Assembly: GCA_964358645.1 (NCBI GenBank)
Contig: CAYHPW010000001.1
Coordinates: 62,264 to 126,263, forward strand
DNA length: 64,000 nucleotides
Direction: 5' to 3'
Source of the DNA: an uncultured Bacteriovoracaceae bacterium
GTDB lineage: Bacteria > Bdellovibrionota > UBA1018
The translations under genes were made by a program, and so were the position numbers. The notes below the pieces were generated by a model, which was not told the DNA's origin, searched no databases, and saw nothing but the letters and a program-made list of their open reading frames with translations. This document shows positions 36,327 through 62,958 of this stretch, one piece after another (position 1 is the first letter of the stretch; each line of letters starts with the position of its first letter).

Positions 36327-36638
36327 TCAGGTCTTTATCTTTACAAAAGATATTACAAATGCGTACAGAACTAATGACTCAATAAGAGCTAGCCCTATAA
36401 TCATTGGAACAAAGATTTTTTGCTGCGCCGCTGGGTTTCTTGCGATACCCTCAAGCGCCGCAGCCGCGGTTTTCCCTTGCCCTAAAGCACCACCGAATGC
36501 CGCAAGCCCGATAGCGAGTGCCGCGCCTAATGATGCGTACTGGTCTCCTCCACTTGTGGCTTCATTAGCAAACGCAACAGATACGCCTACCGTCAAAAAA
36601 ACTACCAATAATAAAAAAATTGCTTTACGAAAACTCAT
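36327..36638 (-). CDS. atpE: F0F1 ATP synthase subunit c
   Basis: 103-aa hairpin proteolipid with GLAAFGGALGQGK loop and the conserved carboxylate helix (IIGLALIESLVLYAFVI). Confidence 0.85.
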   Translation of the reverse strand: MSFRKAIFLLLVVFLTVGVSVAFANEATSGGDQYASLGAALAIGLAAFGGALGQGKTAAAALEGIARNPAAQQKIFVPMIIGLALIESLVLYAFVISFVKIKT

Positions 36639-36661
36639 CGACTCTTACCATCCTTTCTTCT

Positions 36662-37375
36662 TTAATGATCATGTGATGTAGACAAAGAAATATAAACCAT
36701 CGTCATGAGACAAAAAACAAATGCTTGAATAAAGGCCACAAACACGCCTAGTGCATAAAATGCTACCGGCAATAAGTACGGAACCAAAGAACTAAACACA
36801 CCCAATACAACGTGATCGCCCATTATATTCCCTCTAAGACGAAGCGCTAATGAAAGCGGGCGAAAGATGTGTGACGCAAGCTCAATAATTACCATTAGCG
36901 GCGCTAACCAGACAACTGGTCCGATGAAATGCTTCAAATAAGACAAACCCTGCGTCTTAAGGCCAGCATAATTATAATAAATAAAAACAAAAGCCCCAAG
37001 CGCCAATGTTGTATTAAGATTATCTGTCGGGGGTAAAAAACCAGGGATTAGGCCGATTACATTCGAAGCCAATATAAAAATGAATAACGAACCAATTATA
37101 GGAAAATATACCGGTGCATCATAATGTCCAATTACCGATTCTGTAAGTTTGTACAAATTTTCCGCCACTATTTCGAAAAAATTTCTATAGTTCAGTCGTG
37201 GCTCTGGGATAATTCCACCCTCGGGCCTGCTAGTTACGATACGTAAATGATTGCTAGCTATTAATGTAGTTAAAATAAGCACCACAGCTACAAGCATCGC
37301 CATAACCACGTGATTCGGCAACTCCTCTAACCCTGGAATTATTGATAACCAATTAAACCCCTGCTCTTCATGCAT
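36662..37375 (-). CDS. atpB: F0F1 ATP synthase subunit a
   Basis: 237 aa with C-terminal conserved Arg helix (LSLALRLRGNIMGDHVV) and the following helix. Confidence 0.85.
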   Translation of the reverse strand: MHEEQGFNWLSIIPGLEELPNHVVMAMLVAVVLILTTLIASNHLRIVTSRPEGGIIPEPRLNYRNFFEIVAENLYKLTESVIGHYDAPVYFPIIGSLFIFILASNVIGLIPGFLPPTDNLNTTLALGAFVFIYYNYAGLKTQGLSYLKHFIGPVVWLAPLMVIIELASHIFRPLSLALRLRGNIMGDHVVLGVFSSLVPYLLPVAFYALGVFVAFIQAFVFCLMTMVYISLSTSHDH

Positions 37376-38052: not shown

Positions 38053-38874
38053 TCAACGACTTCGCTGAATTTTACGTTCTCGTATTCTTGCTAATTTAAT
38101 TTCTATTATTCTTGGAACTATATAATCACTACGTAATGTTTCATAAGCATGATAAGCCGCATTAAGTTGATCCATTTCTTCCAAACAATTTGCTATCCCA
38201 AATTTAGCTTCCGGTACAAACCTGCTTTTTGGATATTTTTTTAAAAATATTTCAAAAGTGTCTATTGCATCTTGGTACGATTCGCTCCCCCGGTTACCTT
38301 TCGTATAATATGAAACTCCAATTTCGTATGCTGCTCTTTCTCGCCATACAGACTCTTGATTGGTATTTACCAAGCTAGAAAAAGCAGAAATTGCTTCATT
38401 AAACTGACCTAAGTAAAAATGGCTCTTTGCTATCCTAAAAATGAACTCTTGTACATCCGGCGCTTTTGGGTTCTTTTTAATTAAAGAGGAATAATGATGA
38501 ATTGCCTGGTCATATTGTTCACTTTTTGAATAAAGGATTTCACCTATAAGTTTTTCTGCTTCCCAGGCTTGCGCGCTGTCTATAGAAATTATATTCAGAT
38601 ATTGTCTCAATTTTCTTGCTGCTTCATCATATTGAGACAAAAAAAATAATTGTGTGATGGCAGCACGAAAAAGTGCTTGTTGACCTAGCTTTCCATTTAA
38701 ATCCCCCGTTGTTACTTTTTCATATTCAACAACAGCTGCCGCATATTTCCCGTCATTCCAAAGTTTTTCCGCAAGTATATAATTTTTTCTAGCGGTGTTT
38801 ATTCCACAAGCTACTATGGTGGTAAAAAAGGTTATTATAAAAAAATTTTTGGCTGGTCTTGGTAGAATATTCAC
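38053..38874 (-). CDS. TPR-repeat lipoprotein, BamD/YfiO-like
   Basis: 273 aa with N-terminal signal and Cys (TIVACG), followed by TPR repeats. Confidence 0.45.
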   Translation of the reverse strand: MNILPRPAKNFFIITFFTTIVACGINTARKNYILAEKLWNDGKYAAAVVEYEKVTTGDLNGKLGQQALFRAAITQLFFLSQYDEAARKLRQYLNIISIDSAQAWEAEKLIGEILYSKSEQYDQAIHHYSSLIKKNPKAPDVQEFIFRIAKSHFYLGQFNEAISAFSSLVNTNQESVWRERAAYEIGVSYYTKGNRGSESYQDAIDTFEIFLKKYPKSRFVPEAKFGIANCLEEMDQLNAAYHAYETLRSDYIVPRIIEIKLARIRERKIQRSR

Positions 38875-41389
38875 TGAGTATGTGTATTATCTTGCCCGGC
38901 AGTAGCTTCTACAGGGATCCCTACAGACTCAATGGTACTTTCTGCCATATGTTCAAAAGAAACAACTTTCTCTCCTAAAGATATAGTCATAAGCCTTACA
39001 CCCTGTGTGTTTCTTCCTTGTTCAGAAATTTCTCCAACATGGATTCTGATCATTTGGCCCTTATTAGACACAAGCATGATATCATCTCTAAGCAGGACCT
39101 GCCTAGCTCCCATGACGGCCCCATTTTTTTCTATGGTCTTCATGGTTATAATTCCCTTACCGCCGCGGCTTTGGATACGATATTCATTTACTGGTGTTCT
39201 TTTCCCATAACCGCCTTCAGTTATAGTAAGAATTTCACAATCTCCTCCTTGGGTTGCTCGGTTAAGCACCTCCATTGCCGCCACTATGTCTCCAGAATCT
39301 AAAGTCATCCCAATAACACCACGCGTGGCTCTACCCATGGGCCGGACGTCTTGTTCAGAAAATCTAATACTCATACCACTACAGGAACATAAAAAAATGT
39401 CATTACCACCGTCAGTTAACTTGGCACATATAAGGGAGTCTTCTTCGTCTATAGACATTGCGACAATTCCGGAGGATCTGATATTGGAAAACTCACTCAA
39501 GGCGGTCTTCTTAATAATGCCTGATTTGGTAATCATAATCACATATTCATTCTCTCTGAACTCTTGGACCGGGAGGATGGCTCTTATCTTTTCTCCTGGA
39601 GCAAGTGATATAAGGTTCACTATGGCTTTACCTTTGGCGCTTCGACTTGCCTCTGGAATCTTATATACTTTTAACCAATAAACACGTCCCTTGTCTGTAA
39701 AACATAAAAGGTAACTTAGTGTGCTTGTCTTATAAATTGCCGTGACAAAGTCTTCTTCTCCTGGGGCTACTGCCTTTATTCCGCGGCCGCCTCGGTGCTG
39801 ACTTTTAAAAAGATTTGGGTCAGCACGTTTAACATAACCAGAGTGGGTGATGGAAACTAACGTTTCCTCATTCGATATTAAATCCTCCACATCAAATTCA
39901 GTTGTAACTCCATAAACTATTTCTGTGCGTCGTTTGTCTGAATATGTCTTCTTTATTTCTAATAATTCATTTTTAATTAAGGTATATATAAGTACATCAT
40001 TGCCAAGAAGTTTTTTTAGCTCGTCAATCAAGATTAAAACCTGCTTATGTTCATTTATTATTTTTTCCCTCTCCAGTCCTGTTAAGCGCTGTAATCGCAT
40101 ATCTAAAATTGCCTGGGCTTGTATTTCAGAAAAAAGGAACTGCTTGACCAACCCGTCCCTGGCGCTATCAGGATTTTTTGCAGACTTTATGAGATTAATA
40201 ACCGCATCTATCTTTTCAACCGCACTTGCAAGACCTTGTAGTATATGGGCGCGTGCTTCTGCTTTTTTTAAATCAAAAATACTACGTCTGGTTACAACAT
40301 CCTTTCGATGCTCAATGAATGCCCAAATCATATCGCGTAAATTAAAAATTTTAGGCTGATTATGGTGAATGGCTAACAAGTTAATGCTATAACTTTCTTG
40401 CAGTTGTGTTAGCTTAAAAAGTTGATTTAGGATGACGTTTGAGTTTTCACCTTTTCTGATTTCAATAACTATACGCATCCCTGAACGATCTGATTCATCG
40501 CGCAGATCAGAAATGCCTTCTATTTTTTTGTCCCGGACTAATTCTGCAATTCTTTCTATTAAGCGTGCTTTATTAACTTGGTAGGGGAGTTCAAAAACTA
40601 TAATTCTTTCACGATCCCCTTTGAAAGCTTCTATTTCTGTTTTTGCGCGAAGTATTACAGACCCTCTCCCGGTCATATATGCTTCCCTTACTAACTCTCC
40701 ACCAAACAAATAGGCACCCGTCGGGAAATCTGGCCCCTTGATATGCTGTAAAAGTGCATCGCTTTTAAGTGCTGGGTTGTCTATCAACGTTATTGTAGCA
40801 TCAATAACCTCTCCTAGATTGTGTGGTGGAATGCTAGTTGCCATGCCAACGGCTATTCCGGCAGATCCATTCACTAACAGATTAGGTATTTTTGCAGGTA
40901 ATAATAGGGGTTCTGTCAGGCTGTCATCATAGTTTGGGCCAAAATCAACGGTTTCTTTTTCTATATCAGAAAGGAGTTCATCTGTAATCCGTGCCATACG
41001 AATTTCCGTATAGCGCATGGCCGCTGGAGCATCGCCGTCTATGGAACCGAAGTTCCCTTGACCGTCAATCAATGGGTAGCGTAGAGAAAATTTTTGAGCC
41101 ATTCTGACTGCTGTGTCATAAACAGCCACATCCCCATGTGGATGATATTTACCAATAACATCTCCCACTACGCGTGCTGATTTTTTATAGGGCTTGTTGT
41201 GTGCATTGCTTAAATTATACATGGCGTACAAAATGCGCCTATGAACCGGTTTTAATCCATCGCGAACATCTGGAAGCGCTCTACCTACTATCACACTCAT
41301 CGCATAATCGAGATATGCGCCGCGCATTTCGTCCTCGATAGTGACTACTACAGTGTTTTTCTCATGCCCTATAATTTCAGTCATATCGC

Positions 41390-41417
<28 letters not shown>
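38871..41417 (-). CDS. gyrA: DNA gyrase subunit A
   Basis: 848 aa with active-site region AAMRYTE and C-terminal beta-pinwheel repeats. The true start is probably an internal Met (MTEIIG, about 41384), which avoids overlap with fabH. Confidence 0.9.
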
Positions 41418-44841
<3,424 letters not shown>

Positions 44842-44849
44842 TTACTTCC

Positions 44850-45480
44850 AATAAAATTCCATTTTCTGTTGAAGCAATAAACATTTGCTAGTTTGTACTA
44901 GGTAAAAAATTTCTTCTCTCACTATCTAGTTCTGCTGAAAAATCGTCTAGTAGGAAGATTGGTTACTTCCCTGAAAATGTCTATTTCACTAAGTTTCAAA
45001 GCAAGGAGTACCGAACGAATTTCTCCTTGGGATGAATAGCCTTTCAAAGATCATTTGTTAGCTAAAAATAATAACTTATCACGGTGTGGTCCAACTAACG
45101 TATGACCTATCCTTCTCTATGTTTCCTCAAAAAATGAACCCCTATTAAAAAACTCCCTTCCTATTTTTTTAAATGAAGGTATCTCATTGTGTCCAGTAAA
45201 ATGTTCCATATTTAATCCCTTCTCTTTTAGTGCTTAACTCACCATGTATGGAACATTTATTCTTTAAAATTCAGCTCAATCTCCTCTGTTTTTTTGTTTA
45301 TTATACCAGTTAGCTTGTCTTGCTAGGTTATCCTTTTTAAAACTATTTTACTTCCACTTTTAATAAGCAGTTCGGTAATTGAGTCTATTAAGTTTTAGGA
45401 AATATTTTTTTAAAAAATGGTCCTACCCCACCGGCTCAACTGCCGTGGTCTTACACCAATCTGGTAATTTTTTTATTCCA
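44850..45480 (-). pseudogene. recF: recF remnant (frameshifted/truncated) in the canonical dnaN-recF-gyrB position
   Basis: No ORF of 60 aa or longer on either strand across a 644-bp gap. Hand translation of the minus strand gives YSSQGEIRSVLLALKLSEIDIFREVTN (RecF signature region) in one frame and LLDDFSAELDSERRNFL (RecF Walker B, LLLDDVFSELD) in a second frame. Stops follow both. Confidence 0.6.
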
Positions 45481-45482
45481 AT

Positions 45483-46589
45483 TTAGATGCGCATTGGCAT
45501 TATCACATATGTGTGATTTTGTTCTGATGATCCTCTGATTAAACCAGGACTCAATCTATCTTTTAAATTAAACTCTAAACTGTCTGCTTTTGTTACTGCT
45601 AGTAATTCTAAAAAATATTTAAAATTAAATCCTATATCAAGAGATTCTCCGCTATAAGATATATCCATCTCTTCCCTTGCTTCACCCATATCTGGATTGC
45701 TTGATGATATTGTTAATACATTATTTTGAAATACAAATCTTATTCCTCTGCTTTTTTCATTTGCAAGTAAGCTTACCCTCTTTAAGGCGGAATTAAACAC
45801 TTCTGTTTCTATTTTAATAAGCTTATCCATGTTTTGTGGGATAACTAATTTGTAATCGGGATATTCGGCATCTATTAATCGAACAAATAAGTAAGAACTA
45901 TTATTTTTTATAAATATATACCCTTTTTCAAATGAAAGGCCTATCGTTGAACCACTTTCAGACAGGAATTTTCTTATCTCATACAATCCTTTTTTAGGTA
46001 TTATGATCCCTCTTTTAAGATCAGGATTTCCTGTAAAAACCTCCATGTCTACAAAAGATAACCTATGACCGTCTGTAGCGGTCATTCTCATTACATTGTT
46101 TTCAATATTTTCAAAATATACTCCATTTAGGTGATATCTGGTTGCATCTGTAGAAATTGCAAATTGAGTTTTATCTATCATGTTTACTAAAGCTTCAGAT
46201 CTGGCATCTATATATTTTTTTTCTTCAAATATTGGTAACGCCGGATAATCATCTGCTGGTAAGCTAACAATATTAAACCTTGATTTTTCACAAGTGATTT
46301 CTATCCAATTATTATCTTTTTTTATAACATGAAGAGGCTTGTTAGGTAATTCACGTGCAATTTCAAAAAAATGCTTTGCTGAAAGAGTTATTTTACCTTC
46401 TTGTTCTATTTTTGCATTAATAACTAATTTAATACCTACTTCAAGATCGGTTGCAGATAGAGAGATACTGTTTTCATTAGAGACACATAAAATATTTCCA
46501 AGAATTTGAATGGTATTCTTTTTTTCAACAACGGACTGAATTTTTTGCAATGAATTAAAAAGAGCTTCACGCTCAACTGTAAATTTCAT
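45483..46589 (-). CDS. dnaN: DNA polymerase III beta sliding clamp
   Basis: 368 aa with three-domain clamp pattern and C-terminal MPMRI. Confidence 0.9.
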   Translation of the reverse strand: MKFTVEREALFNSLQKIQSVVEKKNTIQILGNILCVSNENSISLSATDLEVGIKLVINAKIEQEGKITLSAKHFFEIARELPNKPLHVIKKDNNWIEITCEKSRFNIVSLPADDYPALPIFEEKKYIDARSEALVNMIDKTQFAISTDATRYHLNGVYFENIENNVMRMTATDGHRLSFVDMEVFTGNPDLKRGIIIPKKGLYEIRKFLSESGSTIGLSFEKGYIFIKNNSSYLFVRLIDAEYPDYKLVIPQNMDKLIKIETEVFNSALKRVSLLANEKSRGIRFVFQNNVLTISSSNPDMGEAREEMDISYSGESLDIGFNFKYFLELLAVTKADSLEFNLKDRLSPGLIRGSSEQNHTYVIMPMRI

Positions 46590-47131
46590 TAATTTCTCTC
46601 TTTATCCTCATTCATTACTAATTACTAGGAATTAGAATATTATATATAGTAGTATTAGTAGGGAATACCTATATGTGAATAACATTGTTATCATAATGTA
46701 ATTATTGAAAAAAAGCTGTTAATAATTTTGGTGATAATTAGCGTTTAAAAGAGGATCTTTTTGTTGATAAAAAAAAATATAAATAGTTTGCTTGTTATCA
46801 ACACAGTTTATTCACAGAGAAAGTCTTATAAACGAAAATACAATATAAATTTACATGGACTTAGTTAGAAAATTTAATAATAAAATAACTTTAAGATTAC
46901 TTATCAACAATAATTGATTGAATACGACTGGTTTATAAGAATAAAAATATATTTAGTGAATGGATAAGTTGATAATAAACCATAACATATTAATTATATT
47001 ATGGTTTATTACGGCTAACAAATAAAAAAAAGTGTGAATTATTTGTGTATAACTATTTATCTACTAGTTATTTTATAGATATCAACAAATATATCCACAA
47101 GTAGAGCCAACCCGATAATAATAGTATAATT
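46590..47131. promoter_or_regulatory. Putative chromosomal replication origin (oriC): AT-rich non-coding block with clustered DnaA-box-like 9-mers
   Basis: 542-bp non-coding block, by eye well over 70% A+T. Contains TTATCAACA x3 (two forward, about 46794 and 46903; one reverse, about 46761), TTATTCACA x2 (forward about 46806, reverse about 46672), ATATCCACA (47091), TTATCCTCA (46601), and A/T-only tracts plausible as a DNA-unwinding element. Confidence 0.55.
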
Positions 47132-47545
47132 TTAATCAGCAAGGATTGTGTGTATATAGTTTACTATTGAGCTCAAACTTGTTCCTGGTGTGAAAACTTC
47201 ATTTACCCCATTGTCTTTTAAAAACTTAATGTCTTCTTCTGGAATAATTCCACCAACAAGCAATATAGCATCTTGTAATCCCGCCTTTTTAAGACCCTCT
47301 GAAATCATTGGAACAAGAGCATTGTGGGCCCCGGAAAGGATACTAACCGCAACTACATTAACATCTTCCTGAATAGCGGTATTAACAATCATATCAGGTG
47401 TTTGATGAAGACCTGTATATATAACTTCAAAACCAGCGTCGCGCAGAGCTCTTGCAATGACTTTTGCACCACGGTCATGACCATCCAATCCAGGCTTTGC
47501 AACCAACACGCGGATTTTATTTTTTATTTTTTTTTTGATAAGCAT
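47132..47545 (-). CDS. Methylmalonyl-CoA mutase small subunit (B12-binding domain)
   Basis: 137 aa with DxHxxG cobalamin-binding motif ([11 protein letters not shown]). Overlaps the large-subunit stop by 4 nt. Confidence 0.85.
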
Positions 47546-47547
47546 TT

Positions 47548-49230
47548 TTAGAATGTCCTCTGTTCTTTGTATTGTCCAAACACCTTACGAAGGACATCAC
47601 AAATTTCTTGTAAGGTTGCATATTTTTTTACTGCACTTATAATTGGTTCAACAAGATTATCACCACTACTTGCTGCTTTAGCGATACCAGTTAAAGACAG
47701 CAATACATCTGTATTTGAGCGACGGTTTTTAAGCGCAGCAAGGCGGGAAACTTGTTGGTGTTCAATAGACTTGTCAATATAAAGAGTATTAATTTGTTGT
47801 GAATTTTTAGTTGTCTTATACTTATTCATTCCAACCATTATTTTTTTATTTTCTTCTAAAAGACGTTGAAAATGATAAGCGCTATTTGAAATCTCTATTT
47901 GTGGAAACCCAGCTTCGATTGCTGCTACCATTCCACCCATTTTAGCTATCTTGTTGAGATATTTTTCCGCTTCTTGTTCCATTTTAGTTGTGAGTGATTC
48001 CATGAAATATGATCCACCAAAAGGATCAACTACATTAGCAACGCCACTTTCTTCTGCTAAAATTTGCTGAGTGCGGAGAGCTATCATTACAGATTCGTCT
48101 GTCGGTAGGGCGAGTGTTTCATCCATGCTATTTGTATGCAACGAATTAGTTCCACCCAGAACGGCCGCCAGACCTTGAATTGCTACGCGGACAATATTAT
48201 TGTGTGGTTGTTGAGCAGTCAGTGAAACGCCCGCGGTTTGTGCATGAGTTCTCAACATGCATGATTTTGGATCCTTAGGGTCGTATTTATCACGAATAAG
48301 TCTGGCCCACAGTCTGCGTGCAGCGCGGAATTTTGCTATTTCTTCAAAAAAATCGTTATGAACATCAAAGAAAAAAGACAACCTTGGAGCAAATTCATCG
48401 ATACTCAAGCCGCGTTCTATACATGCATCAACATAAGCAAGTCCATTGGCAATTGTAAATGCTAACTCTTGTATAGCGGTCGCCCCAGCCTCACGTATAT
48501 GATAACCACTGATGCTTATTGTATTCCAATTAGGGTAGTACTTTGTTGCATTTTCAATTGTATCAACAACTAAACGTACTGCTGGTGTTATTGGGAAAAG
48601 CCATTCTTTTTGAGCGATGTACTCCTTTAAAATATCATTTTGTAGCGTTCCACGGACCTTTTCTCTAGGGACACCTTTTTTTTCAGCAACTGCTAAATAC
48701 ATTGCAAGAATAACTATCGCTGGGCCATTAATAGTCATAGAAGTGGTGACTTCCCCTAGCGGTATCCCGTCAAATAATCTTTCCATATCTTCAAGTGAAG
48801 AAACAGAAACACCGCACTTTCCGACTTCTCCTTTTCCAAGAGGACTATCAGCATCATAACCCATTAAGGTAGGCATATCGAAAGCTACAGAAAGACCTGT
48901 TTGTCCATGTTGGAGAAGAAGTTTAAACCGTTCATTAGTTTTTTCCGCTGTAGCAAAACCAGCAAATTGGCGCATCGTCCAAAGCCTGCCGCGGTACATG
49001 TTGTAATAAACTCCACGTGTATATGGAAATTCTCCAGGAAACCCGAGATCGCGGAGGTAATTAAAATGCATATCCGCTAAATCATCAGGGGAGTTTAATA
49101 ATGGAATGCTCATATCACTCCATGTTGTAAACGACCCTGGTCTTATGGAATTTTGATCCTCAGATTTTTTAAGTCTAGTTTCCCACTCCGTTTTTGCTTT
49201 ACGGATAGCACTCAGCTCTTCATTAAACAT
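47548..49230 (-). CDS. Methylmalonyl-CoA mutase large (catalytic TIM-barrel) subunit
   Basis: 560 aa with acyl-CoA mutase motifs ([35 protein letters not shown]). Confidence 0.85.
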
Positions 49231-49264
49231 TTAGTTACTCCCGTAAGTAAGACAGCACATAACT

Positions 49265-50428
49265 CTAAGAGTTATTGGCCAATTCTTGTGCAGCAATTAC
49301 TATTCTTTGTATTTCTGAGGTTCCTTCATAAAGTTCTGTTATTTTTGCATCACGAAAGTTTCGTTCCACAATATATTCCTTTGTGTAACCATAGCCACCA
49401 TGGACTTGTATTGCTTTAGTGGTTATCCACATAGCGGCTTCTGATGCTGCCAGCTTAGCCATAGCAGCAGCCTTCGTATAGTTTTGGCCATAGTCCTTCA
49501 ATTTTGATGCATGCCAGGTCAATAATCTAGCCGCTTGTAGTTTAGTTGCCATATCAGCTATGAAAAACTGAATTGCTTGAAGTTTAGCAATTGGCGCCCC
49601 GAATTGTTCTCTCTCTGTTGAAAAATTTTTTGAAGCATCAAGAGCACATCTAGCAATGCCAAGCGCTTGAGCGGCGATGCCGATTCTTCCACCATCAAGT
49701 GTTGATAGAGCAATTTTTAATCCTTGACCCTCACACCCGAGAAGACATTCTTTAGGTACAAATACATCATCAAAAAATAATTGAGCGGTTGATGAAGCTG
49801 TAATTCCAAGCTTATCTTCTAGTTTTGAAACCTGAAAGCCCGGGCTTTTAGTATCAACGATAAAAGCACAAATCCCTTTATGACCCAGCGTTTTATCTAT
49901 TGTAGCAAACAATATACATACATCAGCCTCTTTACCATTTGTGATCCAGTTTTTTGTGCCCCGAATTTTATATCCCCCAGCGGATTTAATTGCTTGGCAT
50001 TTTAATCCGGCTGGGTCAGAGCCATGGCCAGGTTCGGACAAGGCAAAGCAGCCTAGCTTTTCACCTCTTGCTAAAGGGATTAAAAAAGATTTTTTTTGGT
50101 AATCATTTCCAAAAGCATTCAATGGATAGCACACTAATGAATTGTTAACAGACATAATCACAGCAGTTGAAGCGCACGCAGCGGCTACTTCTTCCATTGC
50201 CATTACATATGAGACACAATCCATACCAGCCCCACCCCATTGTTCGGGCACCATCATACCCATTAACCCCATCTGGCCTAATTGCTGGATTATTTCAGAC
50301 GGAAATCTGCCATCCGAGTCGAGTTCGTGCGCCTTAGGGGCTATTTCCGCCTTTGAGAATGCATGGACTTGTTCAATCAACATCCTTTTAGATTCGTCTG
50401 TTTCTGGCCAATCATTAATTGGAGTCAT
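49265..50428 (-). CDS. Acyl-CoA dehydrogenase (short/branched-chain type)
   Basis: 387-aa ACAD fold with C-terminal catalytic Glu region (YEGTSEIQ). Confidence 0.8.
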   Translation of the reverse strand: MTPINDWPETDESKRMLIEQVHAFSKAEIAPKAHELDSDGRFPSEIIQQLGQMGLMGMMVPEQWGGAGMDCVSYVMAMEEVAAACASTAVIMSVNNSLVCYPLNAFGNDYQKKSFLIPLARGEKLGCFALSEPGHGSDPAGLKCQAIKSAGGYKIRGTKNWITNGKEADVCILFATIDKTLGHKGICAFIVDTKSPGFQVSKLEDKLGITASSTAQLFFDDVFVPKECLLGCEGQGLKIALSTLDGGRIGIAAQALGIARCALDASKNFSTEREQFGAPIAKLQAIQFFIADMATKLQAARLLTWHASKLKDYGQNYTKAAAMAKLAASEAAMWITTKAIQVHGGYGYTKEYIVERNFRDAKITELYEGTSEIQRIVIAAQELANNS

Positions 50429-51282
50429 ATTTGTCCTTGAAAAATTGGTTTTCTTTTCTCTAGGAAGGCATTCATGCCTTCCTTTTGATCATAACTACAG
50501 AAGAGTTGTCCAAAGGCCTGTACTTCGCCATCCAATTTAGAGTTAAGACCGGCTGTTTCAGAAAACTCATTCAAGAGTTGTTTTGCTCTAGCTACAGCGC
50601 TAGCGGACTGCATACTGATTGAACGCGCTATCTCTAATACACTTTGCATAAAACCTTCTATTGGAAGGACTCTATTCACAAGGCCAAACGAAAGAGCCTC
50701 TTTAGCGGATATTTTTTTACCGGAATAAATAAGCTCTTTTGCTCGTGGCAAGCCAATAAATTTAGGCAGTCTAAATGTTGCGCCAAAACCTGGTATTACA
50801 CCTAATCCAACCTCAGGTTGCCCAAACACGGCTTTTTCATTGGCTAGTATAAAATCGCAAGCCAAGGCCATTTCAGTCCCTCCACCAAGCGCATAGCCAT
50901 TAACCGCAGCAATAGTTGGTTTGGGCATTAACTCTAAAAGTTTAGCAACATCATGACCTAGCTGTGCAAACCGAACAGCTTCTGTTGCGCTCTTGTCTTT
51001 CATTTCAGCAATATCAGCACCAGCAATAAACGCCTTATCGCCTGCGCCGGTAAGCACAACTACCCGTACATCAGGGTCTGATGCAAGGGCAGAAAGAATC
51101 TCTTTCATTTCAGAAAGAACAGCACTGTTCAGGGCATTTAAACTCTCTTGTCTTGAAATTTTTAGCACGACTATTTTTGGATCCACTCCTTCTAGAAGGA
51201 GGTATTTAAATTTCAATTTATTTAGAATCATAATTATAAAACCCCCGCCCAGATTTTTTCCCCAACCAACCAGCAGCGACAT
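50425..51282 (-). CDS. Enoyl-CoA hydratase (crotonase family)
   Basis: 285 aa with crotonase-fold motifs (VVLTGAGDKAFIAGADI, GYALGGGTEMALACD). Confidence 0.75.
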   Translation of the reverse strand: MSLLVGWGKNLGGGFIIMILNKLKFKYLLLEGVDPKIVVLKISRQESLNALNSAVLSEMKEILSALASDPDVRVVVLTGAGDKAFIAGADIAEMKDKSATEAVRFAQLGHDVAKLLELMPKPTIAAVNGYALGGGTEMALACDFILANEKAVFGQPEVGLGVIPGFGATFRLPKFIGLPRAKELIYSGKKISAKEALSFGLVNRVLPIEGFMQSVLEIARSISMQSASAVARAKQLLNEFSETAGLNSKLDGEVQAFGQLFCSYDQKEGMNAFLEKRKPIFQGQI

Positions 51283-52081
51283 ATTGTTTTAAAAGTGGGG
51301 ACGGTCTATACCTCGGGTCACCCAGACCTTCATGTAATACATTTAAAATAGCTAAGCATGTGTCTAGGCCGATAAAATCAGCAAGGGTAAGCGGTCCCAT
51401 TGGTTGATTTGTTCCCAATTTCATCGCTGTGTCGATATCTTCGATGGACGCGACTCCTTCATATAACGCCGTTATTGCCTCATTAATCATAGGCATCAGG
51501 ATCCGGTTTACCGTGAAGCCAGGCATATCTTTAGCTTCTATAAATATTTTTCCCATTTTTTCTACAACAGAGCGTACCGTTGTAAAAGTTTCATCTGAAG
51601 TCTGGAGTCCTCGGATTCCTTCAACCAGCTTCATTAATGGAACTGGATTCATAAAGTGAACGCCCGCCACAAGATTAGGACGTTTGGTTTTTGCTGCAAT
51701 AGCGGTAATGCTAATGGAAGAAGTGTTTGATGCAAGAATTACTGATGGAGATATAACTTCATCTAACTTTTTAAAAATGTCATATTTAAGCTCCGTCTTT
51801 TCTGTAACTGCCTCAATAACTAATTGAGCGGGCTTAAGGTCTAAGAGTGTATTTACCGGTTTAATTAATAACAATATTTGATCATACTCGTTTTTTTGTA
51901 ATTTTCCCTTTTCAACCTGTTTTTGAAGCTGAAAAGATAGTTTACTTTTCCCTTTTTCAGCTATGTCTAAATTTATATCTGCTAGAAGAACCTCGAAGCC
52001 AGCTTGTGCTGCTGTTTGAGCAATACCGACCCCCATTTGCCCGGCTCCAAGGATGCCTATTTTGTTAATGGTTAAATTCAT
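51218..52081 (-). CDS. 3-hydroxyacyl-CoA (3-hydroxybutyryl-CoA) dehydrogenase
   Basis: 287 aa with N-terminal Rossmann GAGQMGVGIAQ and HBD C-terminal domain. Confidence 0.8.
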   Translation of the reverse strand: MNLTINKIGILGAGQMGVGIAQTAAQAGFEVLLADINLDIAEKGKSKLSFQLQKQVEKGKLQKNEYDQILLLIKPVNTLLDLKPAQLVIEAVTEKTELKYDIFKKLDEVISPSVILASNTSSISITAIAAKTKRPNLVAGVHFMNPVPLMKLVEGIRGLQTSDETFTTVRSVVEKMGKIFIEAKDMPGFTVNRILMPMINEAITALYEGVASIEDIDTAMKLGTNQPMGPLTLADFIGLDTCLAILNVLHEGLGDPRYRPSPLLKQYVAAGWLGKKSGRGFYNYDSK

Positions 52082-52146
52082 ATTAACAGCCTCCTTTTTT
52101 CACACGTCTTTGCTGTAATATAAGTAAGCACCTCACTAAACAAGTA

Positions 52147-53595
52147 TCATTTGCCAATACAAAACTGCGAAAAAATAGCCTCCAAAATTTCATCTGGCAA
52201 TAAATCTCCTATAAGGGGGCCTAAGGCGTAACGAGCTTGTCTAATATCAGAGGCGAATAAGTCAAATTCATGGATTGTTCTTGCGCGGTACAAGTGCTCA
52301 AGTGAGACTCGCACGGCATTTTCTTGTTCTGGGCGAGTTAGAAGTAATTCATCATTGCTATTTGGAAGCCAGCGTCCACAAAAGTCTGCAATTTTGTAAA
52401 TTGCATCTGAAATGCCATCACCCGTTAGTGCTGAAGTAGCAACCCAAGTATTAATATTAAAAAATACACGAACTTTAGCTGTTACTGATGATAGGGAACC
52501 TTTAATAAGATCACATTTGGACAATATTCCTATAGTCTTATTTACCGGTTTACCTAAAGCATCCCATTGTTCAAGTGTGGAAGCGAGATATCTCGCGGAT
52601 GATTTTGATGCATCAACCACTAAAATAAGCAAGTCAGCTTCGGAGGCGGCTGTTATTGCTCGCTCTACACCATGACGTTCTGCTTTATTAGTCTTAACTC
52701 TTAGTCCTGCTGTATCATGAAGGTGGATAGTAATAGTTTGCTTGTCGGTATTTATTGTAAAGAATTCACTAACCACATCTCGCGTGGTTCCGGGCATTTC
52801 TGATATAATAGAACGGTCTTCTCCAAGTAAAGAGTTGAAGAAACTTGACTTGCCGGCATTTGGCAGACCGATTAATGCGACAGAAATACCTTCTTGTATC
52901 CTACGTCCGCGTTCGTAGCCAGCATAGAGAGTTTCCAGAATTCTAATTAGGTGATCGAGTTTGGTTTTTATAGAAGAAAGGGAAAATTCGTCAATAGATT
53001 GATCAGAAAAATCTATATTTGCCTCCGTAATAATAGAGAGCTGCTTCAACTCTTCTGCAATGGATTCAAGAATAACTTGTTGTTTTCTAGAAAGCTTACT
53101 TAGCGCCAGCGAAACAGCATTATCGTTAGGGGCGGATAGCAGATCAGCGACAGCTTGGGCTTGTAGTAGCGTCATTTTTCCGTTACGTACAGCGCGAAAG
53201 CTGAATTCCCCAGGGAGTGCCTGCCGGATCCCGATATCAAGGAGTGTTTCCATTAATGAATTAGCTATATAGGATCCCCCATGAAATTGAATTTCAGTAA
53301 CATCTTCACCAGTAAAGCTAGAAGGGCCCTTAAAATATACAATCATCGCCCGATCTATTTTTTTTCCATTTTTATTAAACAGATCAGCAAGAATCATTTT
53401 TTTTTGATCTTTAGGTAAAGATTTTTTAGTTAATTTAATAAGAGTCTCATGAGCGGCTGGCCCGCTAATCCGGATTATTCCTATAACCCCACCGGCAGGG
53501 GTAGCAAGCGCTGCAATTGTGTCATCTGAAAAATATGAATGAGAAAAACTTTTATTATTTTGCTTGAGCGACCACCGGCGTGACATTGGGGCCAC
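52147..53595 (-). CDS. mnmE: tRNA modification GTPase MnmE
   Basis: 482 aa with G-domain motifs (GLPNAGKSS, DTAG, SKCD) and the C-terminal CxGK tetrapeptide (CIGK). Confidence 0.85.
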   Translation of the reverse strand: MAPMSRRWSLKQNNKSFSHSYFSDDTIAALATPAGGVIGIIRISGPAAHETLIKLTKKSLPKDQKKMILADLFNKNGKKIDRAMIVYFKGPSSFTGEDVTEIQFHGGSYIANSLMETLLDIGIRQALPGEFSFRAVRNGKMTLLQAQAVADLLSAPNDNAVSLALSKLSRKQQVILESIAEELKQLSIITEANIDFSDQSIDEFSLSSIKTKLDHLIRILETLYAGYERGRRIQEGISVALIGLPNAGKSSFFNSLLGEDRSIISEMPGTTRDVVSEFFTINTDKQTITIHLHDTAGLRVKTNKAERHGVERAITAASEADLLILVVDASKSSARYLASTLEQWDALGKPVNKTIGILSKCDLIKGSLSSVTAKVRVFFNINTWVATSALTGDGISDAIYKIADFCGRWLPNSNDELLLTRPEQENAVRVSLEHLYRARTIHEFDLFASDIRQARYALGPLIGDLLPDEILEAIFSQFCIGK

Positions 53596-55153
53596 CTAAT
53601 TTCTTATTTAAGATGATTTGCTGAAAAATACTGGCTACGGCATTTACAAGCATGTAAAGAGTTAATCCTGACGGTAAAGCGAGCATGAATGCACCGAAAA
53701 TTAAGGGCATAAATTGCATCATACGCGCTTGCGTGGGGTCAGTGGCGGTTGTTGGTGTTAATTTTTGTTGGATATACATAGTAATGGATAATAGAACTGG
53801 GGTTACATAGTATGGATCCCTGCTTGAAAGATCAGTCACCCAAAGCGCGAAGGGAGCATGATAAAGTTCAATCGAGCTATATAAAACACGATATAAGGCA
53901 AAGAATATCGGCATTTGTATAAGTATAGGCAGGCAGCCAGCCATTGGATTGTATCCATGGCTTCGCATGAGTATGAGCATTTCTTTATTTAGCTTTTCCT
54001 TATCATCCTTAAATTTTTCACGGAGTTTTTGGATTTGTGGCTGTATTTTTGCCATCTCTTTCATGCTTTTCATGCTTTTTAAAGTTAGAGGATAAGTCAC
54101 TATCTTTAATAAGAGGGTCAATAAAATGATTGATACCCCATAATTTCCGGCGAAGGTATAAAACCATTTAAGCAATCTAAGTAATGGATAAGCAAATACA
54201 GTAAACCAACCAAAATCTACCGTATGGTCCAATAAAGGTTCTGCGGAACGCAAGCTTTCAAGGTTTTTTGGTCCAAAATAAACACGCACCGGGATTTCTA
54301 TTGAGTCGCCTATAATCGGATATACCAAACTTACTCTTGCGGCTAGCGGCCCCATTGGTTGTATAAGGGCTCTTGGTTCGTTTAATCCACGATTTATTAC
54401 AGAGAGCAAAAAATAACGACTAGCTGTACCTATGTATTTTACAGTAGTGGCGACATCTGTTTGTTTTGATACGTTTTGCACCAAAATGCGCTCAAGATCA
54501 TTATTTGTCCAATAAACGATTTGTCTATCTTGCGCTTCTTGATCATCTTTAGTTCCATGAGAAAAAAGCGACAAAAACGCATATTTAGGCTTTTTTGTCT
54601 TAAATTGCGCCATAATAGCAACATCCAGATACTGCTGGTTTTCCGAAGCGACTACGTGTTTTGTAAGGCGAATATTTTGATCTTCATATTCAAAAAGCCC
54701 GCCGGTTGGTTCTGATTTTAGCGTTCCATAGGAGGTCTCAAGATAACTAAGATGCGGGTCATCAAAAGCAAAAACAAACTGTTTATTATTATTGGTAATA
54801 AGAGTCAAATCAACTAGTGCAGAATTTTTATTTATTTCAGTGTGATAATCTTTTAGCTGCCAGTTTGTAATGAGTGAATTTCCATTGCTAAGCGATAGAG
54901 GACCCGTTCCTGTTTGAATGGATACCTGTCGGAGAGATTGTTGGGCTGATTGTTTTTCTACCATCAACATTTTCTCATTGTATTGAGAAGCGGAATTTAA
55001 ATTATTATCATTCAACAGAGCATTAGACGGCACAGGGGAAGCTGAGGGCGACGCATGTATTCCTTGGGACACTCTTGGTTCAATAATAATTTTTTGCCAT
55101 AAAACCAGAATTAAAAAACTAATGGCAATAGCTATGAGTGTTTTACGGTCCAT
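53555..55153 (-). CDS. yidC: Membrane protein insertase YidC
   Basis: 532 aa with N-terminal TM, periplasmic domain and C-terminal 5-TM Oxa1 core. Confidence 0.85.
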   Translation of the reverse strand: MDRKTLIAIAISFLILVLWQKIIIEPRVSQGIHASPSASPVPSNALLNDNNLNSASQYNEKMLMVEKQSAQQSLRQVSIQTGTGPLSLSNGNSLITNWQLKDYHTEINKNSALVDLTLITNNNKQFVFAFDDPHLSYLETSYGTLKSEPTGGLFEYEDQNIRLTKHVVASENQQYLDVAIMAQFKTKKPKYAFLSLFSHGTKDDQEAQDRQIVYWTNNDLERILVQNVSKQTDVATTVKYIGTASRYFLLSVINRGLNEPRALIQPMGPLAARVSLVYPIIGDSIEIPVRVYFGPKNLESLRSAEPLLDHTVDFGWFTVFAYPLLRLLKWFYTFAGNYGVSIILLTLLLKIVTYPLTLKSMKSMKEMAKIQPQIQKLREKFKDDKEKLNKEMLILMRSHGYNPMAGCLPILIQMPIFFALYRVLYSSIELYHAPFALWVTDLSSRDPYYVTPVLLSITMYIQQKLTPTTATDPTQARMMQFMPLIFGAFMLALPSGLTLYMLVNAVASIFQQIILNKKLGGPNVTPVVAQAK

Positions 55154-55156
55154 GAA

Positions 55157-55462
55157 TTATCCTTTGAATGAAGATTTGTGACAATACGGCAAAGGGGCGG
55201 GATCAAAATAAGATGTGGACTTGAAAGAAAAAGGCTGGCAGCGCAAAAGTCGGTAAATACTCAGCCAAGCCCCCTTTATTATATTATGAGTTGTAAAAAC
55301 CCGTTTTACATAGGCGCTGCATGTCGGTTCAAACCTACATCCTGAGTTAGCGCCAGCAAATAAGTGAAGAACTGGTGAAACAAAAAAACTATAGATAAAA
55401 AAGAAAATATTCACACACAACAAAAAAAACTTTTTCATATTTGATAACCTATTCATAACCAA
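55157..55462 (-). CDS. yidD: Membrane protein insertion efficiency factor YidD
   Basis: YidD motif SPVLHLFAGANSGCRFEPTCSAY...RLLRCQPF. The true start is probably internal. Confidence 0.75.
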   Translation of the reverse strand: MVMNRLSNMKKFFLLCVNIFFFIYSFFVSPVLHLFAGANSGCRFEPTCSAYVKRVFTTHNIIKGAWLSIYRLLRCQPFSFKSTSYFDPAPLPYCHKSSFKG

Positions 55463-55844
55463 CAGTATGATGGTTAATGGCTAACACTAGCTCATTACTA
55501 AGGCATGTTCCAAGCCTTACCGGGAAGGGATGGGACAAGTTTTTTGAAGATGGAATGACAACATTGTAGTCACGACTTCCGAGAAGGCCATGGCGTTTAG
55601 AAAGAAAGCGGAAACTTTCTCTAATCTTTCGCTTAACCCGATTCCTCTCTATAGATAAGCCGCGGGCTTTAAGGGTTATTCCAAGCCGATAATGACAAAA
55701 AGTATTATTAGTTACATACACCAAACACTCGGATAAACGCATTACTCTCCGGTTTGCGAAGAATCTTTTAAAATCTGATGAACTACGAATCCGGTGTTTT
55801 GACCCAAATGAACGAATAACAATCGCCCCCTCGTTGGTCACCAA
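55449..55844 (-). CDS. rnpA: RNase P protein component
   Basis: 131-aa basic protein with RNR motif region (ERNRVKRKIRESFR). Non-ATG (TTG) start per ORF track. Follows rpmH. Confidence 0.75.
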   Translation of the reverse strand: MVTNEGAIVIRSFGSKHRIRSSSDFKRFFANRRVMRLSECLVYVTNNTFCHYRLGITLKARGLSIERNRVKRKIRESFRFLSKRHGLLGSRDYNVVIPSSKNLSHPFPVRLGTCLSNELVLAINHHTVGYE

Positions 55845-55854
55845 ATAGGCAATG

Positions 55855-56004
55855 CTATTTTTTTGAATTTACAGGAACTAAGCGGGTACGTTTTCTCGCA
55901 CGGCGCCTGCTTATTACACGACGGCCGTTTTTTGTTTTCATACGGGCCCTGAAGCCATGTCTACGGCGTCTTTTGACGCGACTTGGTTGATAAGTTCTTT
56001 TCAT
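55855..56004 (-). CDS. rpmH: 50S ribosomal protein L34 (49 aa; missed by ORF track, under 60 aa)
   Basis: Hand translation gives [49 protein letters not shown], ending at TAG at 55855-55857, which matches the L34 family. Classic rpmH-rnpA-yidD-yidC order, divergent to dnaA. Confidence 0.85.
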
Positions 56005-56105
56005 ATTAACTACTCCACAGAATTCGTGACGCGAGTCAAACAGTTATAGGAGATAGGATTCGTTGTCAAGGAGAAGACCACATGTTATGCGATTAACTCG
56101 CCCAT

Positions 56106-57587
56106 ATGAGAACGAGTTTAGAGGTTGATATTAAAAAATGGCCGGAAGTATGGCAGGCAGCCTATCGTGTTCTGGAGCAGTCTGTTGTTTCTAATCAATT
56201 GCAAGCATGGATACAGCCGCTTGAACTAATTGATACAAAATATAGTGATGATAACACTACCGAGGTTACATTTGAGGCGCCGAATGATTTTTCTGCGCAG
56301 TGGGTGCGTGATTATTACCAGAAAACAATAGAGGCGGCCTTTTTACAAGTAACGGGAAAACCTTGTGAAATATTAGTTTATGCAAAAGAAAATAACAAAG
56401 CCACTAACAGGCAGACATCTCATAGTGAGAATGATGGCAGTGAGCCTGAGTTGCAATCAGATTTAGCAGAAACCGAGGTTCACAATGTACAGACTGAAAA
56501 CGGTGGTTCACGGTATTTCATGCGTAGCGAAGAGCGCGTAGCGATGAACAGTTCGGGCCGGCAAGAATTTGAAAACAATTTAGATCATCGTTATTTTTTT
56601 GAAAATTTTATAGTAGGGGCCAGCAATCAATTTGCATATACAGCGGCAACAGCCATAGCAGAACAACCAGCTAAGCAGTATAATCCGCTATTTATTTACA
56701 GCCCCCCGGGTTTGGGTAAGACTCATTTACTGTATGCAATAGGGAATAGATTTAAGGAGAAAACCCCTTCTGCGAAGGTAGTATATTTATCTGCCGAAAA
56801 ATTTGTGAATGAACTGATAGACTCTTTACAACATAAGCGTATGTCTCAATTCAGAATAAAATATAGGGATAGTTTTGACATGATACTTATTGATGACATT
56901 CAGTTTATCGCTGGTAAAAAATCTACAGAGATAGAGTTTTTTCACACGTTTAATACACTCCACAGCTCGAAACGCCAGATAGTAGTTACATGCGATAGGC
57001 CACCGAGGGAAATAGAGGGTCTAGAAGAACGAATACGCACCAGGTTTGAATGGGGCTTAGTTGCAGATATTAGTCCACCAGAAATTGAAACACGGATCGC
57101 GATACTTAAGTCAAAGGCCGAAAGGGAGGATATTTACCTTCCTGATGACGTGGCTATATTTTTGGCAAGCCATATAAAAGCAGATGTCCGAAAACTAGAG
57201 GGCGCCCTTGTAAAACTTCAAGCTCACGCTTCATTAACTGGTGCAGAAATAACCTTAGAAATGGCTCGACAGGAATTTAAAACGATGGTTCCAGAGGAGG
57301 GAACCCATATCACCATTGAAGCGATCCAAAATGCGGTAGTTAAATATTTTAATTTAAAGTCACAAGACTTTAAGTCCACTACGCGCGCAAGAAATGTGGC
57401 ATTACCACGCCAAGTCGCCATGTATTTAATTAGAAAATATACTGGTAGCGGATTTAAAGAAATAGGACATTATTTCGGCGGCAAAAACCACACAACAATA
57501 CTTTATGCCTGCAGTAAAATAGAAAAAGAATTAGAAACGGATGAACACATTCGTCAGGCGGTAGAGTCCATACAGAATATGTTATAA
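56106..57587 (+). CDS. dnaA: Chromosomal replication initiator DnaA
   Basis: 493 aa with AAA+ Walker A (GLGKTHL), Walker B (LIDDIQF) and C-terminal DNA-binding domain (VALPRQVAMYLIRKYTGSGFKEIG). Confidence 0.9.
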   Translation: MRTSLEVDIKKWPEVWQAAYRVLEQSVVSNQLQAWIQPLELIDTKYSDDNTTEVTFEAPNDFSAQWVRDYYQKTIEAAFLQVTGKPCEILVYAKENNKATNRQTSHSENDGSEPELQSDLAETEVHNVQTENGGSRYFMRSEERVAMNSSGRQEFENNLDHRYFFENFIVGASNQFAYTAATAIAEQPAKQYNPLFIYSPPGLGKTHLLYAIGNRFKEKTPSAKVVYLSAEKFVNELIDSLQHKRMSQFRIKYRDSFDMILIDDIQFIAGKKSTEIEFFHTFNTLHSSKRQIVVTCDRPPREIEGLEERIRTRFEWGLVADISPPEIETRIAILKSKAEREDIYLPDDVAIFLASHIKADVRKLEGALVKLQAHASLTGAEITLEMARQEFKTMVPEEGTHITIEAIQNAVVKYFNLKSQDFKSTTRARNVALPRQVAMYLIRKYTGSGFKEIGHYFGGKNHTTILYACSKIEKELETDEHIRQAVESIQNML

Positions 57588-60973: not shown

Positions 60974-61050
60974 GCGGGTGTAGCTCAGTTGGCTAGAGCG
61001 CGAGCTTCCCAAGCTTGAGGTCGAGGGTTCGAGTCCCTTCACCCGCTCCA
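60974..61050 (+). tRNA. tRNA-Gly (anticodon CCC)
   Basis: Folded by hand: 7-bp acceptor stem GCGGGTG/CACCCGC, D-stem GCTC/GAGC, anticodon stem CGAGC/GCTTG with loop TTCCCAA, T-arm GAGGG-TTCGAGT-CCCTT, discriminator U and encoded CCA. Confidence 0.85.
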
Positions 61051-61056
61051 AAGTTT

Positions 61057-62958
61057 ATGTATTTTGATGTAATAATCATTGGTGGTGGTCATGCTGGATG
61101 TGAAGCAGCCCACGCAAGCGCCAAAAGTAAATGCCGCACGGCGCTAATAACGCTCGATATTAATAAGATGGCCTTAATGTCATGTAATCCCGCGATTGGT
61201 GGGTTGGCCAAAGGACATCTTGTAAAAGAAATAGACGCACTAGGTGGATTGATGGCGGTTAATACTGATAAAACAGCTATTCAATATAGGAGGCTAAATG
61301 CCAGCAGAGGACCAGCTGTTAGATCTTCTAGGGCACAGTGTGATAAACGGTTGTACTCAGCCCAAATGCAAAAACACTTATCATGCATTGATAATCTGAC
61401 AATTATCCAGTGTGAAGTTAGCGAGCTTCTTGTAAATAATTCCAAGATTTGTGGGGTACTAATAAAGACTGGCGATGAGATTTATTGTAGCGCTGTAGTT
61501 ATTACAACAGGGACATTTTTATGCGGCACAATGTATATTGGATTTGAAAAAGAACATGGAGGTAGGGCAGGAGATAGCGCTGCCGAGGGATTAAGTGAAA
61601 GTCTAGATAAGCTTGGTTTTGGATTGCGTCGTTTAAAGACCGGAACGCCACCGCGATTAAAAAAAGAGAGTATAAATTTTAGTAAACTTGAAATTCAACC
61701 TGGTGATAGCGAGCCGGAGCCGTTTTCATTTTATTTCAAGCCAAAGATTTTTCCTGTTTTACCACAAACATGTTGTCATATTACATATACCAATACAGAA
61801 ACGCATGATATTATAAGAGAAAATCTTACCCGGGCACCGATTTTCGCCGGAATAATTAAAGGAATCGGACCGCGTTACTGCCCCTCAATCGAGGATAAGA
61901 TTCAGCGATTTTCTGATAAAGAAAGGCACCAGCTTTTTTTGGAACCCGAAGGGCTTGATTCCGATGAAATTTATGTAAACGGGATATCAACGAGCTTACC
62001 TCGAGAGGTGCAAGAAAAATTTGTTAAGACAATTCCAGGCTTAGAAAGAGCGGAATTTGCCAGATATGGCTATGCCGTTGAGTATGATGCAATTGATCCT
62101 ACGAATTTAAAATCTACACTCGAATCAAAAAAAATCAGCGGATTATTTTTCGCGGGGCAAATTAATAGTACCTCAGGGTATGAGGAAGCCGCCGCACAAG
62201 GGTTGGTTGCTGGTGCTAATGCAGCAATATTTGTAATTGGAAATGAGCCACTGATAATTAGCAGATTTGATGGTTACATTGGGGTATTAATAGATGATCT
62301 GATCACTAAAGGCGCAGACGAGCCATATAGGATGTTTACTTCGCGTGCAGAATATAGATTGCTATTAAGAGAGGATAACGCGGATCTTCGACTAAGTGAG
62401 ATTGGTTGGAAACGTGGATTACTAGATCAATGTGCATATGATTCTTTTTGTAAAAAGCGAGAAAAGATTACTTATTGGAAACAAAAACTTTTAGAATTTC
62501 AACTATCACCCAGCGAAAGAGTTAACTCTCGACTTCATGAGTTAGGCCAGAGCACAATATTAGATCGTATTTCTGGCGAAATACTTTTACGTAGACCAGA
62601 CATCTGTTGGAATTTGCTTTGTAGCTTAGGATTTGATGGTACCGCTGTAAACAAAGATGTTTATGAAGAAATAGAAATTCAAATTAAATATGAAGGATAT
62701 ATTAAGCGCGATATCGAGCTATTAAATGGGATAAAAAAGAGTGATAACTTACAGATACCTACTGATATAGATTTTGAAATCATCCCCGGCTTATCAAATG
62801 AAATAAAAGGCAGATTTAAGCGTATACGCCCGGAAACAATCGGACAAGCGACCAGAATTACTGGCGTAACACCAGCTGCAGTTGCAAATTTGTTAATTTA
62901 TCTAAAAATGCTCAAAAGGGATAAGATTTCAACAAAAAATCAGCGTGGTGAGCAATAA
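61057..62958 (+). CDS. mnmG: tRNA uridine-5-carboxymethylaminomethyl synthesis enzyme MnmG (GidA)
   Basis: FAD-binding motif [16 protein letters not shown]. The ORF track begins at 61015, inside the tRNA, so the start at MYFDV (61057) is preferred. Confidence 0.85.

Follow-up and report, generated by a model that had tools for sequence, protein, structure and literature searches.

The 542-bp gap at positions 46590–47131 of the window, by which we mean the whole 64-kb stretch of DNA that was analysed, is bounded by the start codon of dnaN and the stop codon of mcmC, a gene for a B12-binding mutase domain. An Rfam search of the gap matched no families and the longest open reading frame within it spans 35 aa, and an RNA gene or small reading frame in this region was therefore rejected. 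The gap is also the GC minimum of the 64-kb window, with values of 0.185, 0.20 and 0.218 over 200, 300 and 542 bp, respectively, against a window mean of 0.406; the second-lowest GC content is that of the neighbouring dnaN gene. An earlier sequence-only reading of this DNA had described the gap as non-coding and as the most AT-rich block of the window, and the open reading frame, Rfam and GC scans bear out both statements. The long A/T-only runs noted at that time are likewise present, each 12–20 bases in length. Because the same gap sequence occurs in three independent groundwater metagenome assemblies, to the last base, it is not an assembly artefact.

Read from left to right, the minus strand carries gyrA, a fabH-like gene, gyrB, a 645-bp recF remnant, dnaN, the gap, mcmC, mcmN, genes for an acyl-CoA dehydrogenase and a crotonase, hbd, mnmE, yidC, yidD, rnpA and rpmH. 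To the right of rpmH lie dnaA on the plus strand, an aldehyde dehydrogenase gene on the minus strand and then, again on the plus strand, nrdJ, a tRNA gene, mnmG, rsmG and the start of parA. The last of these begins near position 63888 and is truncated by the end of the window, and parB follows to the right of the window; extension in this direction by way of rsmG added only 4.3 kb of sequence. This arrangement agrees with the gene order that had been read from the sequence, in which dnaA starts at 56106 on the opposite strand and diverges from rpmH, a metabolic operon and mnmE-yidC-yidD-rnpA-rpmH separate dnaN from dnaA, and mnmG, rsmG and parA are near the proposed origin. The features of the locus are collected in Table 1.

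Table 1. Features of the putative origin and its surroundings (window coordinates; relatives are described in the text)
Feature	Position	Strand	Observation or basis
recF pseudogene (context only, outside the origin)	44839–45482	−	tblastn with RecF of relatives finds no more than the C-terminal half
dnaN, sliding clamp	45483–46589	−	TIGR00663, E = 2.6e-101; stayed with the unwinding end of the putative origin
Putative oriC region, whole	46590–47131		Intergenic, mcmC stop to dnaN start; non-coding; 22% GC; 8 boxes; collinear with the scaffold of relatives
Putative DNA unwinding element	46611–46646		AT-rich tract from the trios to the dnaN ribosome-binding site; placed like the TATATATA tract of relatives
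Five DnaA-trios	46647–46661	+	Plus strand TAG TAG TAT TAG TAG, that is, 3′-GAT-5′ repeats; aligned with CTACTACTACTACTA of relatives
Degenerate second box of tandem pair, ATATAGGTA	46666–46674	−	5 mismatches; alignment with relatives
Anchoring DnaA box, TTATTCACA	46674–46682	−	1 mismatch, fits TTATNCACA; aligned to the upstream member of the double box TTATCCAC(T/A)TATCCACA of relatives
Three phased boxes	46717–46770	−	TTATTAACA 46717–46725, TTATCACCA 46729–46737, TTATCAACA 46762–46770; homologous to the direct array of four boxes in relatives
Two opposite-strand boxes	46795–46816	+	TTATCAACA 46795–46803, TTATTCACA 46808–46816; L028 has boxes at equal offsets from dnaN
Box TTATCAACA	46901–46909	+	Matches the single inverted box of relatives, alignment shifted by 3 nt
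Upstream double box, degenerate	46959–46975	−	TTATCAACT 46967–46975, TTATCCATT 46959–46967
Two boxes	47033–47052	−	TTATACACA 47044–47052, TAATTCACA 47033–47041; box search and alignment
Two distal boxes	47079–47099	+	ATATCAACA 47079–47087, ATATCCACA 47091–47099; box search and alignment
mcmC, B12-binding methylmalonyl-CoA-mutase C-terminal-domain gene	47132–47545	−	Profile match
Inverted block	47132–57587		mcmC, mcmN, acd, crt, hbd, mnmE, yidC, yidD, rnpA, rpmH (−); dnaA (+)
rpmH	55855–56004	−	rpmH–dnaA gap of 101 bp
dnaA, initiator, intact, 9 kb from the putative origin	56106–57587	+	TIGR00362, 517 bits (cutoff, 344); aligns with 8btg, the DnaA structure of B. subtilis, at E = 4.6e-115

DnaA-box 9-mers with at most one mismatch to TTATCCACA occur 33 times in the 64 kb of the replicon that were searched, and eight of these are inside the gap. 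From 0.17 to 0.20 would be expected there, and none of 5,000 shuffles that preserved the base composition of the gap itself reached eight. Elsewhere in the 64 kb, once the gap and its immediate flanks are set aside, no 542-bp stretch holds more than two. The sequence-only reading had counted at least seven boxes; all seven of the 9-mers it listed are in place, but the count falls one short, as it omits TTATACACA at 47044–47052.

Relatives provide a guide to the organization of these boxes. A DnaN scan of species-representative genomes yielded 23 loci, of which the nearest belong to uncultured Oligoflexia/Bdellovibrionota. Nine close relatives (L004–L011 and L013), whose DnaN proteins are 57–68% identical to that of the window, carry upstream of dnaN an array of roughly 550 bp with 11–20 boxes, mostly perfect copies of TTATCCACA at fixed offsets. 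The array ends in the double box TTATCCAC(T/A)TATCCACA, the GC-rich spacer C(G/C)CCC, (CTA)x5 and TATATATA, located 50–190 bp before the dnaN start codon, such that a TATATA tract follows five CTA repeats, which are DnaA-trios. The window gap aligns over the whole of this scaffold with a constant 22-bp offset, and a recognizable box persists at about 13–14 of the 19 scaffold positions. The fourth position of the phased array (46741–46749) has decayed in the window, and a further box at 46602–46610 lacks a counterpart in the relatives and, judged by this alignment, may be a chance match. The MAGs of this sister clade (L004–L013; for example, JACPOE010000066 and CAVWVI010000003) share with the window the scaffold, the box offsets, the unwinding core described below and the inverted gene order. 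They differ from it in having 11–19 perfect copies of TTATCCACA and two similar modules about 290 bp apart, whereas perfect boxes are lacking in the window and a search of its gap for an internal duplication of this kind detected no repeat. The sister-clade boxes, which lie approximately 100–650 bp upstream of dnaN with 12-bp phasing, are unusually uniform for a natural origin.

At the dnaN end of the gap, the minus strand reads TTATTCACA-TATAGGTATTCC-CTA CTA ATA CTA CTA-TATATAATA. A box and five trios, with a 12-bp spacer between them, have therefore been kept 58 bp before dnaN. The spacer has the same length as in the relatives, although only half of it is G+C. Four of the five trios are GAT (GAT GAT TAT GAT GAT), and the central A is present in all five. 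Published rules for recognizing a basal unwinding system (BUS) call for a box with no more than two mismatches, a spacer no longer than 16 bp (with a peak at 10–13 bp) and three or more trinucleotides whose central base is A, preferably 3′-GAT-5′ (PMC8287927). A second tandem box with up to four mismatches is optional, being present in 57% of predicted modules, and B. subtilis requires only the upstream box of its tandem pair (PMC8287927). In the window, the anchoring box TTATTCACA has one mismatch, the 12-bp spacer is inside the peak, and the five trios are consecutive and oriented on the strand in agreement with both the relatives and the published scheme. The optional second box, ATATAGGTA, has five mismatches against the four allowed. 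On sequence grounds, the core is of the published BUS type, and the same core lies beside dnaN in the more distant genomes L014, L016 and L017. The AT tract at 46611–46646 is the likely unwinding site, judging from its place in this core. The long A/T-only runs, which lie mid-gap and to which the sequence-only reading had given that role, are less likely candidates than this short tract beside dnaN.

This architecture suggests how initiation might proceed. On the basis of homology and of established knowledge of such modules, we propose that DnaA would bind about 13–15 boxes over some 500 bp, and that the dnaN-proximal box at 46674–46682 would steer a DnaA–ATP oligomer over the 12-bp spacer onto the trios at 46647–46661. 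The oligomer on the trios would then open the AT-rich tract around 46611–46646, just upstream of the dnaN start, where the helicase would load and from which two forks would depart. Binding of DnaA, the position of unwinding and firing at this gap are all steps that we infer from its sequence.

The features by which an oriC is commonly assigned coincide at this locus: a box cluster well above chance (8 compared to 0.17–0.20), an element flanking the boxes that is AT-rich by composition (46611–46646, in a gap of 22% GC), neighbours that mark origins (dnaN, dnaA, rpmH, mnmG, rsmG and parAB) and an intact cognate initiator gene, dnaA, in the same genome. We put the probability that positions 46590–47131 constitute the chromosomal oriC of this uncultured groundwater member of the Oligoflexia/Bdellovibrionota at roughly 0.87. 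The sequence-only reading had already proposed a putative oriC beside dnaN, and this proposal gains support from the homologous box arrays, from the core of box, spacer, trios and AT tract, and from the precedent of Bdellovibrio bacteriovorus.

The weakest part of the case is GC skew. The cumulative skew (1-kb bins) reaches its minimum at about 52–53 kb and so misses the gap, on its right side, by 5–6 kb, and skew at four-fold sites changes sign near 39 kb, with gyrA behaving anomalously. Specifically, the top-strand skew at four-fold sites in gyrA (38871–41417) is +0.25, opposite in sign to the −0.3 to −0.5 of the genes just to its left. Mean skew is about −0.13 for the minus-strand genes left of the gap and, to its right, −0.09 for the acyl-CoA operon and about +0.03 for mnmE–rnpA, so that the acyl-CoA operon is intermediate between the two sides. 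Among relatives with the gene order of the window, same-strand skew jumps at dnaN–recF in four of five (about −0.03 on one side, about +0.15 on the other), and the switch in the relatives is located between dnaN and gyrB. For the window, the strand switch is bracketed only to approximately 39–52 kb, with the gap inside the bracket but not pinpointed. By the skew check suggested alongside the sequence-only reading, the fit is only loose, in that the sign change brackets the gap but the minimum lies off it. We dropped GC skew as a precise locator, since both measures fluctuate too much over 64 kb and have codon usage and the strand of the genes as confounders.

The displaced skew minimum is one of three observations that could instead be explained if the gap were a retired or weakened origin, now serving chiefly as a DnaA-regulated dnaN promoter, with firing outside the window or elsewhere in the 47–56-kb interval. 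The others are that every gap box deviates from TTATCCACA, against 11–19 perfect copies in the sister clade, and that the adjoining recF pseudogene indicates decay at this locus. We consider this explanation decidedly unlikely, because the trios and the 12-bp spacing are intact and the box changes concentrate on positions 5 and 6, with positions 1–4 and 7–9 kept, a pattern that looks like ongoing selection rather than neutral decay. Furthermore, perfect boxes number zero in L027, which has the same layout as the window, and six in L028, and degenerate arrays are therefore normal in the group. The 64 kb also hold no other box cluster, either in the 101-bp rpmH–dnaA gap, in the 65-bp hbd–mnmE gap or elsewhere.

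Origins adjacent to dnaA are common, and total GC skew in the window is positive from about 53 kb onwards. These facts would suit an origin in the rpmH–dnaA promoter region (56005–56105), for which the dnaN-side cluster would be the auxiliary half of a split origin. Such an arrangement is highly improbable, given that this 101-bp gap, in which the sequence-only reading had correctly seen no box cluster, has an ordinary rather than AT-rich composition (GC content about 0.43), no box within one mismatch and no run of trios, and that all relatives examined, those of standard gene order among them, have the unwinding module beside dnaN. A second origin half was sought in both the dnaN–gyrB gap, whose 645 bp are the recF pseudogene, and the rpmH–dnaA gap, which has no boxes, and none was found. 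Finally, TTAT-containing words are commoner in AT-rich sequence, but the notion that an AT-rich spacer acquired box-like 9-mers by chance from its composition is excluded by the shuffles described above and by the offsets that the window boxes share with those of the relatives.

Degeneracy of the boxes, which counts against the assignment, sets the putative oriC in the window apart from those of the sister clade. Three gap boxes fit TTATNCACA, four are TTATCAACA or near it, and several carry a C6-to-A change. Over 18 sites, the numbers of matches at box positions 1 to 9 are 15, 16, 15, 16, 8, 7, 12, 12 and 13, and the mismatches therefore cluster at positions 5 and 6. The apparent consensus in the window is TTATYMACA. 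The C6-to-A change reduces the affinity of E. coli DnaA for its box, and position 5 has no reported effect on affinity in either E. coli or M. tuberculosis (PMC5043019). We also considered whether the window holds a uniquely eroded origin copy, an idea that is weakened by the counts of perfect boxes in L027 (0), L028 (6) and the outgroup L014 (3). The contrast with the sister clade could have arisen either by erosion in the window lineage or by homogenization in the sister clade. From these counts, box degeneracy appears to be a continuum in the group, with no tie to the DnaA substitution described next.

The DnaA protein encoded in the window is intact and has 493 aa. In E. coli DnaA, Asp433 belongs to a highly conserved D-H dyad with base-specific contacts. 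The full set of E. coli base-contact residues comprises R399, P423, D433, H434, T435 and H439 (PMC2533591). Equivalents of R399, H434 and T435 are kept in the window protein, P423 is replaced by K throughout the clade, and H439 is replaced by Y, as it is in a few homologues. At the position of D433 the window protein has N, which is shared by none of the 119 closest homologues (residues ~432–441, window 57399–57428, read FGGKNHTTILYAC). If this D433N substitution and the box changes were linked, they would show DnaA and its box co-evolving in nature. It is unlikely, however, that D433N together with an origin lacking TTATCCACA marks a shift or relaxation of initiator–origin recognition in the window lineage. 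A tie between D433N and the C6-to-A boxes is weakened by L028, whose DnaA has Asp and whose origin shares with the window two TTATCAACA boxes at matching offsets. Moreover, L027 keeps Asp yet has an origin without a perfect box, whereas L028 combines Asp with six.

The separation of dnaA from the dnaN side can be traced by synteny. In L014–L022, dnaA is directly upstream of dnaN. In L014, whose DnaN is 48% identical to that of the window, yidC, mnmE, hbd, acd, mcmN and mcmC are on the opposite strand and diverge from dnaA, and flipping the L014 block from dnaA to mcmC reproduces the exact order of the window. That order is common to L004, L005, L008, L010 and L011, as well as to L027 and L028, which were found through DnaA homologues, and the inverted order has been inherited throughout a clade that numbers eight or more genomes at species level. 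By comparison of these gene orders, a single inversion of about 10.5 kb (47132–57587) is the simplest account. The sequence-only reading had supposed that a rearrangement separated dnaA from the origin, and the synteny with L014 and with the seven relatives of like order shows that event to have been an inversion.

According to this account, the ancestral order would have been rpmH-dnaA-oriC-dnaN-recF-gyrB. One breakpoint would lie in the interval between the dnaA stop codon and the outermost box, and the other past mcmC, the last gene of the acyl-CoA operon. The inversion would have kept oriC on dnaN and moved dnaA to the opposite strand, at a distance of 9 kb. By geometry, the inverted block should be wholly on one side of the origin, with rpmH to mcmC head-on to the fork and dnaA co-directional with it. 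The locus thus offers a traceable case of dnaA becoming unlinked from oriC, with a breakpoint at the outer edge of the putative origin and the ancestral state surviving in L014. At the inversion breakpoint, where mcmC adjoins the origin, L008 (981–9430) and L010 (6615–9430) hold 2.8–8.4 kb of extra genes, and this junction appears to be prone to insertions.

Unlinked initiator genes have counterparts in other bacteria. Cyanobacterial origins are beside dnaN without an adjacent dnaA, and oriC of E. coli is about 42 kb from dnaA. As in those cases, the initiator gene in the window is not linked to the putative origin, and dnaN or mnmG serves as the neighbouring marker, in keeping with DoriC/Ori-Finder practice. 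Unlike in those cases, the separation is small (9 kb) and traceable to one inversion, with the ancestral state found in L014. Origins on the dnaN side with dnaA elsewhere were thus already known from other phyla, and what is new is the putative origin of this clade together with a traceable inversion.

The closest characterized system is that of B. bacteriovorus, whose oriC is between dnaA and dnaN and combines eight boxes and four trios with a GC-rich spacer and an unwinding element that has been mapped (PMC5124646). Its DnaA binds this oriC in vivo and in vitro and unwinds it (PMC5124646). B. bacteriovorus (Makowski et al. 2016) and the window belong to the same phylum-level group and have in common an origin position upstream of dnaN, boxes, a GC-rich spacer, trios and an AT-rich element. 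In B. bacteriovorus, however, dnaA is directly upstream, the gap is 232 bp and two of the eight boxes are inside dnaA, whereas in the window dnaA is inverted away and the 542-bp gap follows a 19-position scaffold. The window differs further in its recF pseudogene and in the fabH-like gene between gyrB and gyrA. The BUS in incC of B. subtilis (boxes 6 and 7; PMC8287927, PMC6669920) resembles the window in its tandem boxes, short spacer, 3′-GAT-5′ repeats and AT tract, and in both the upstream box is the one closer to consensus. The B. subtilis origin is split around dnaA, whereas the window has a single cluster without adjacent dnaA and a second box that is almost unrecognizable. Taken on its sequence, the gap is probably a standard origin of DnaA boxes and DnaA-trios, homologous to oriC of B. 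bacteriovorus and set in an altered gene context. It would leave the current understanding of initiation unchanged. For a lineage represented by metagenomes only, the assignment aids genome orientation, replichore analysis and coverage-based estimates of growth rate.

Several additional features of the locus and of its relatives were observed. The recF remnant at 44839–45482 has four in-frame stop codons and a frameshift, which are the same in the three assemblies, and recF of the relatives is intact between dnaN and gyrB. The fabH-like gene (41390–42406, minus strand) encodes a ketoacyl-ACP synthase III, and its position between gyrB and gyrA is kept in most relatives, including L014. A tRNA gene at 60974–61047 on the plus strand, between nrdJ and mnmG, overlaps the longest mnmG reading frame, so that mnmG must start further downstream (near 61057). 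The ATP synthase genes are split by the putative origin: those for the a and c subunits are on the left (window 36327–37375, minus strand), and those for b, b′ and delta, with the genes that follow, are on the right (L030:13222–14955), after parA, parB and a bactofilin gene.

Among the relatives, the gyrB matches of L004 (12320–17767) fall into three pieces about 1.2 and 1.7 kb apart, which suggests inteins or insertions. Two relatives carry a gene beside the origin that fuses an ORF6N domain to DnaA domain IV (Bac_DnaA_C), at L007:3–779 on the plus strand and L008:7862–8716 on the minus strand. Such a fusion gene is absent from the window; where present, its product could be a box-binding competitor or regulator.
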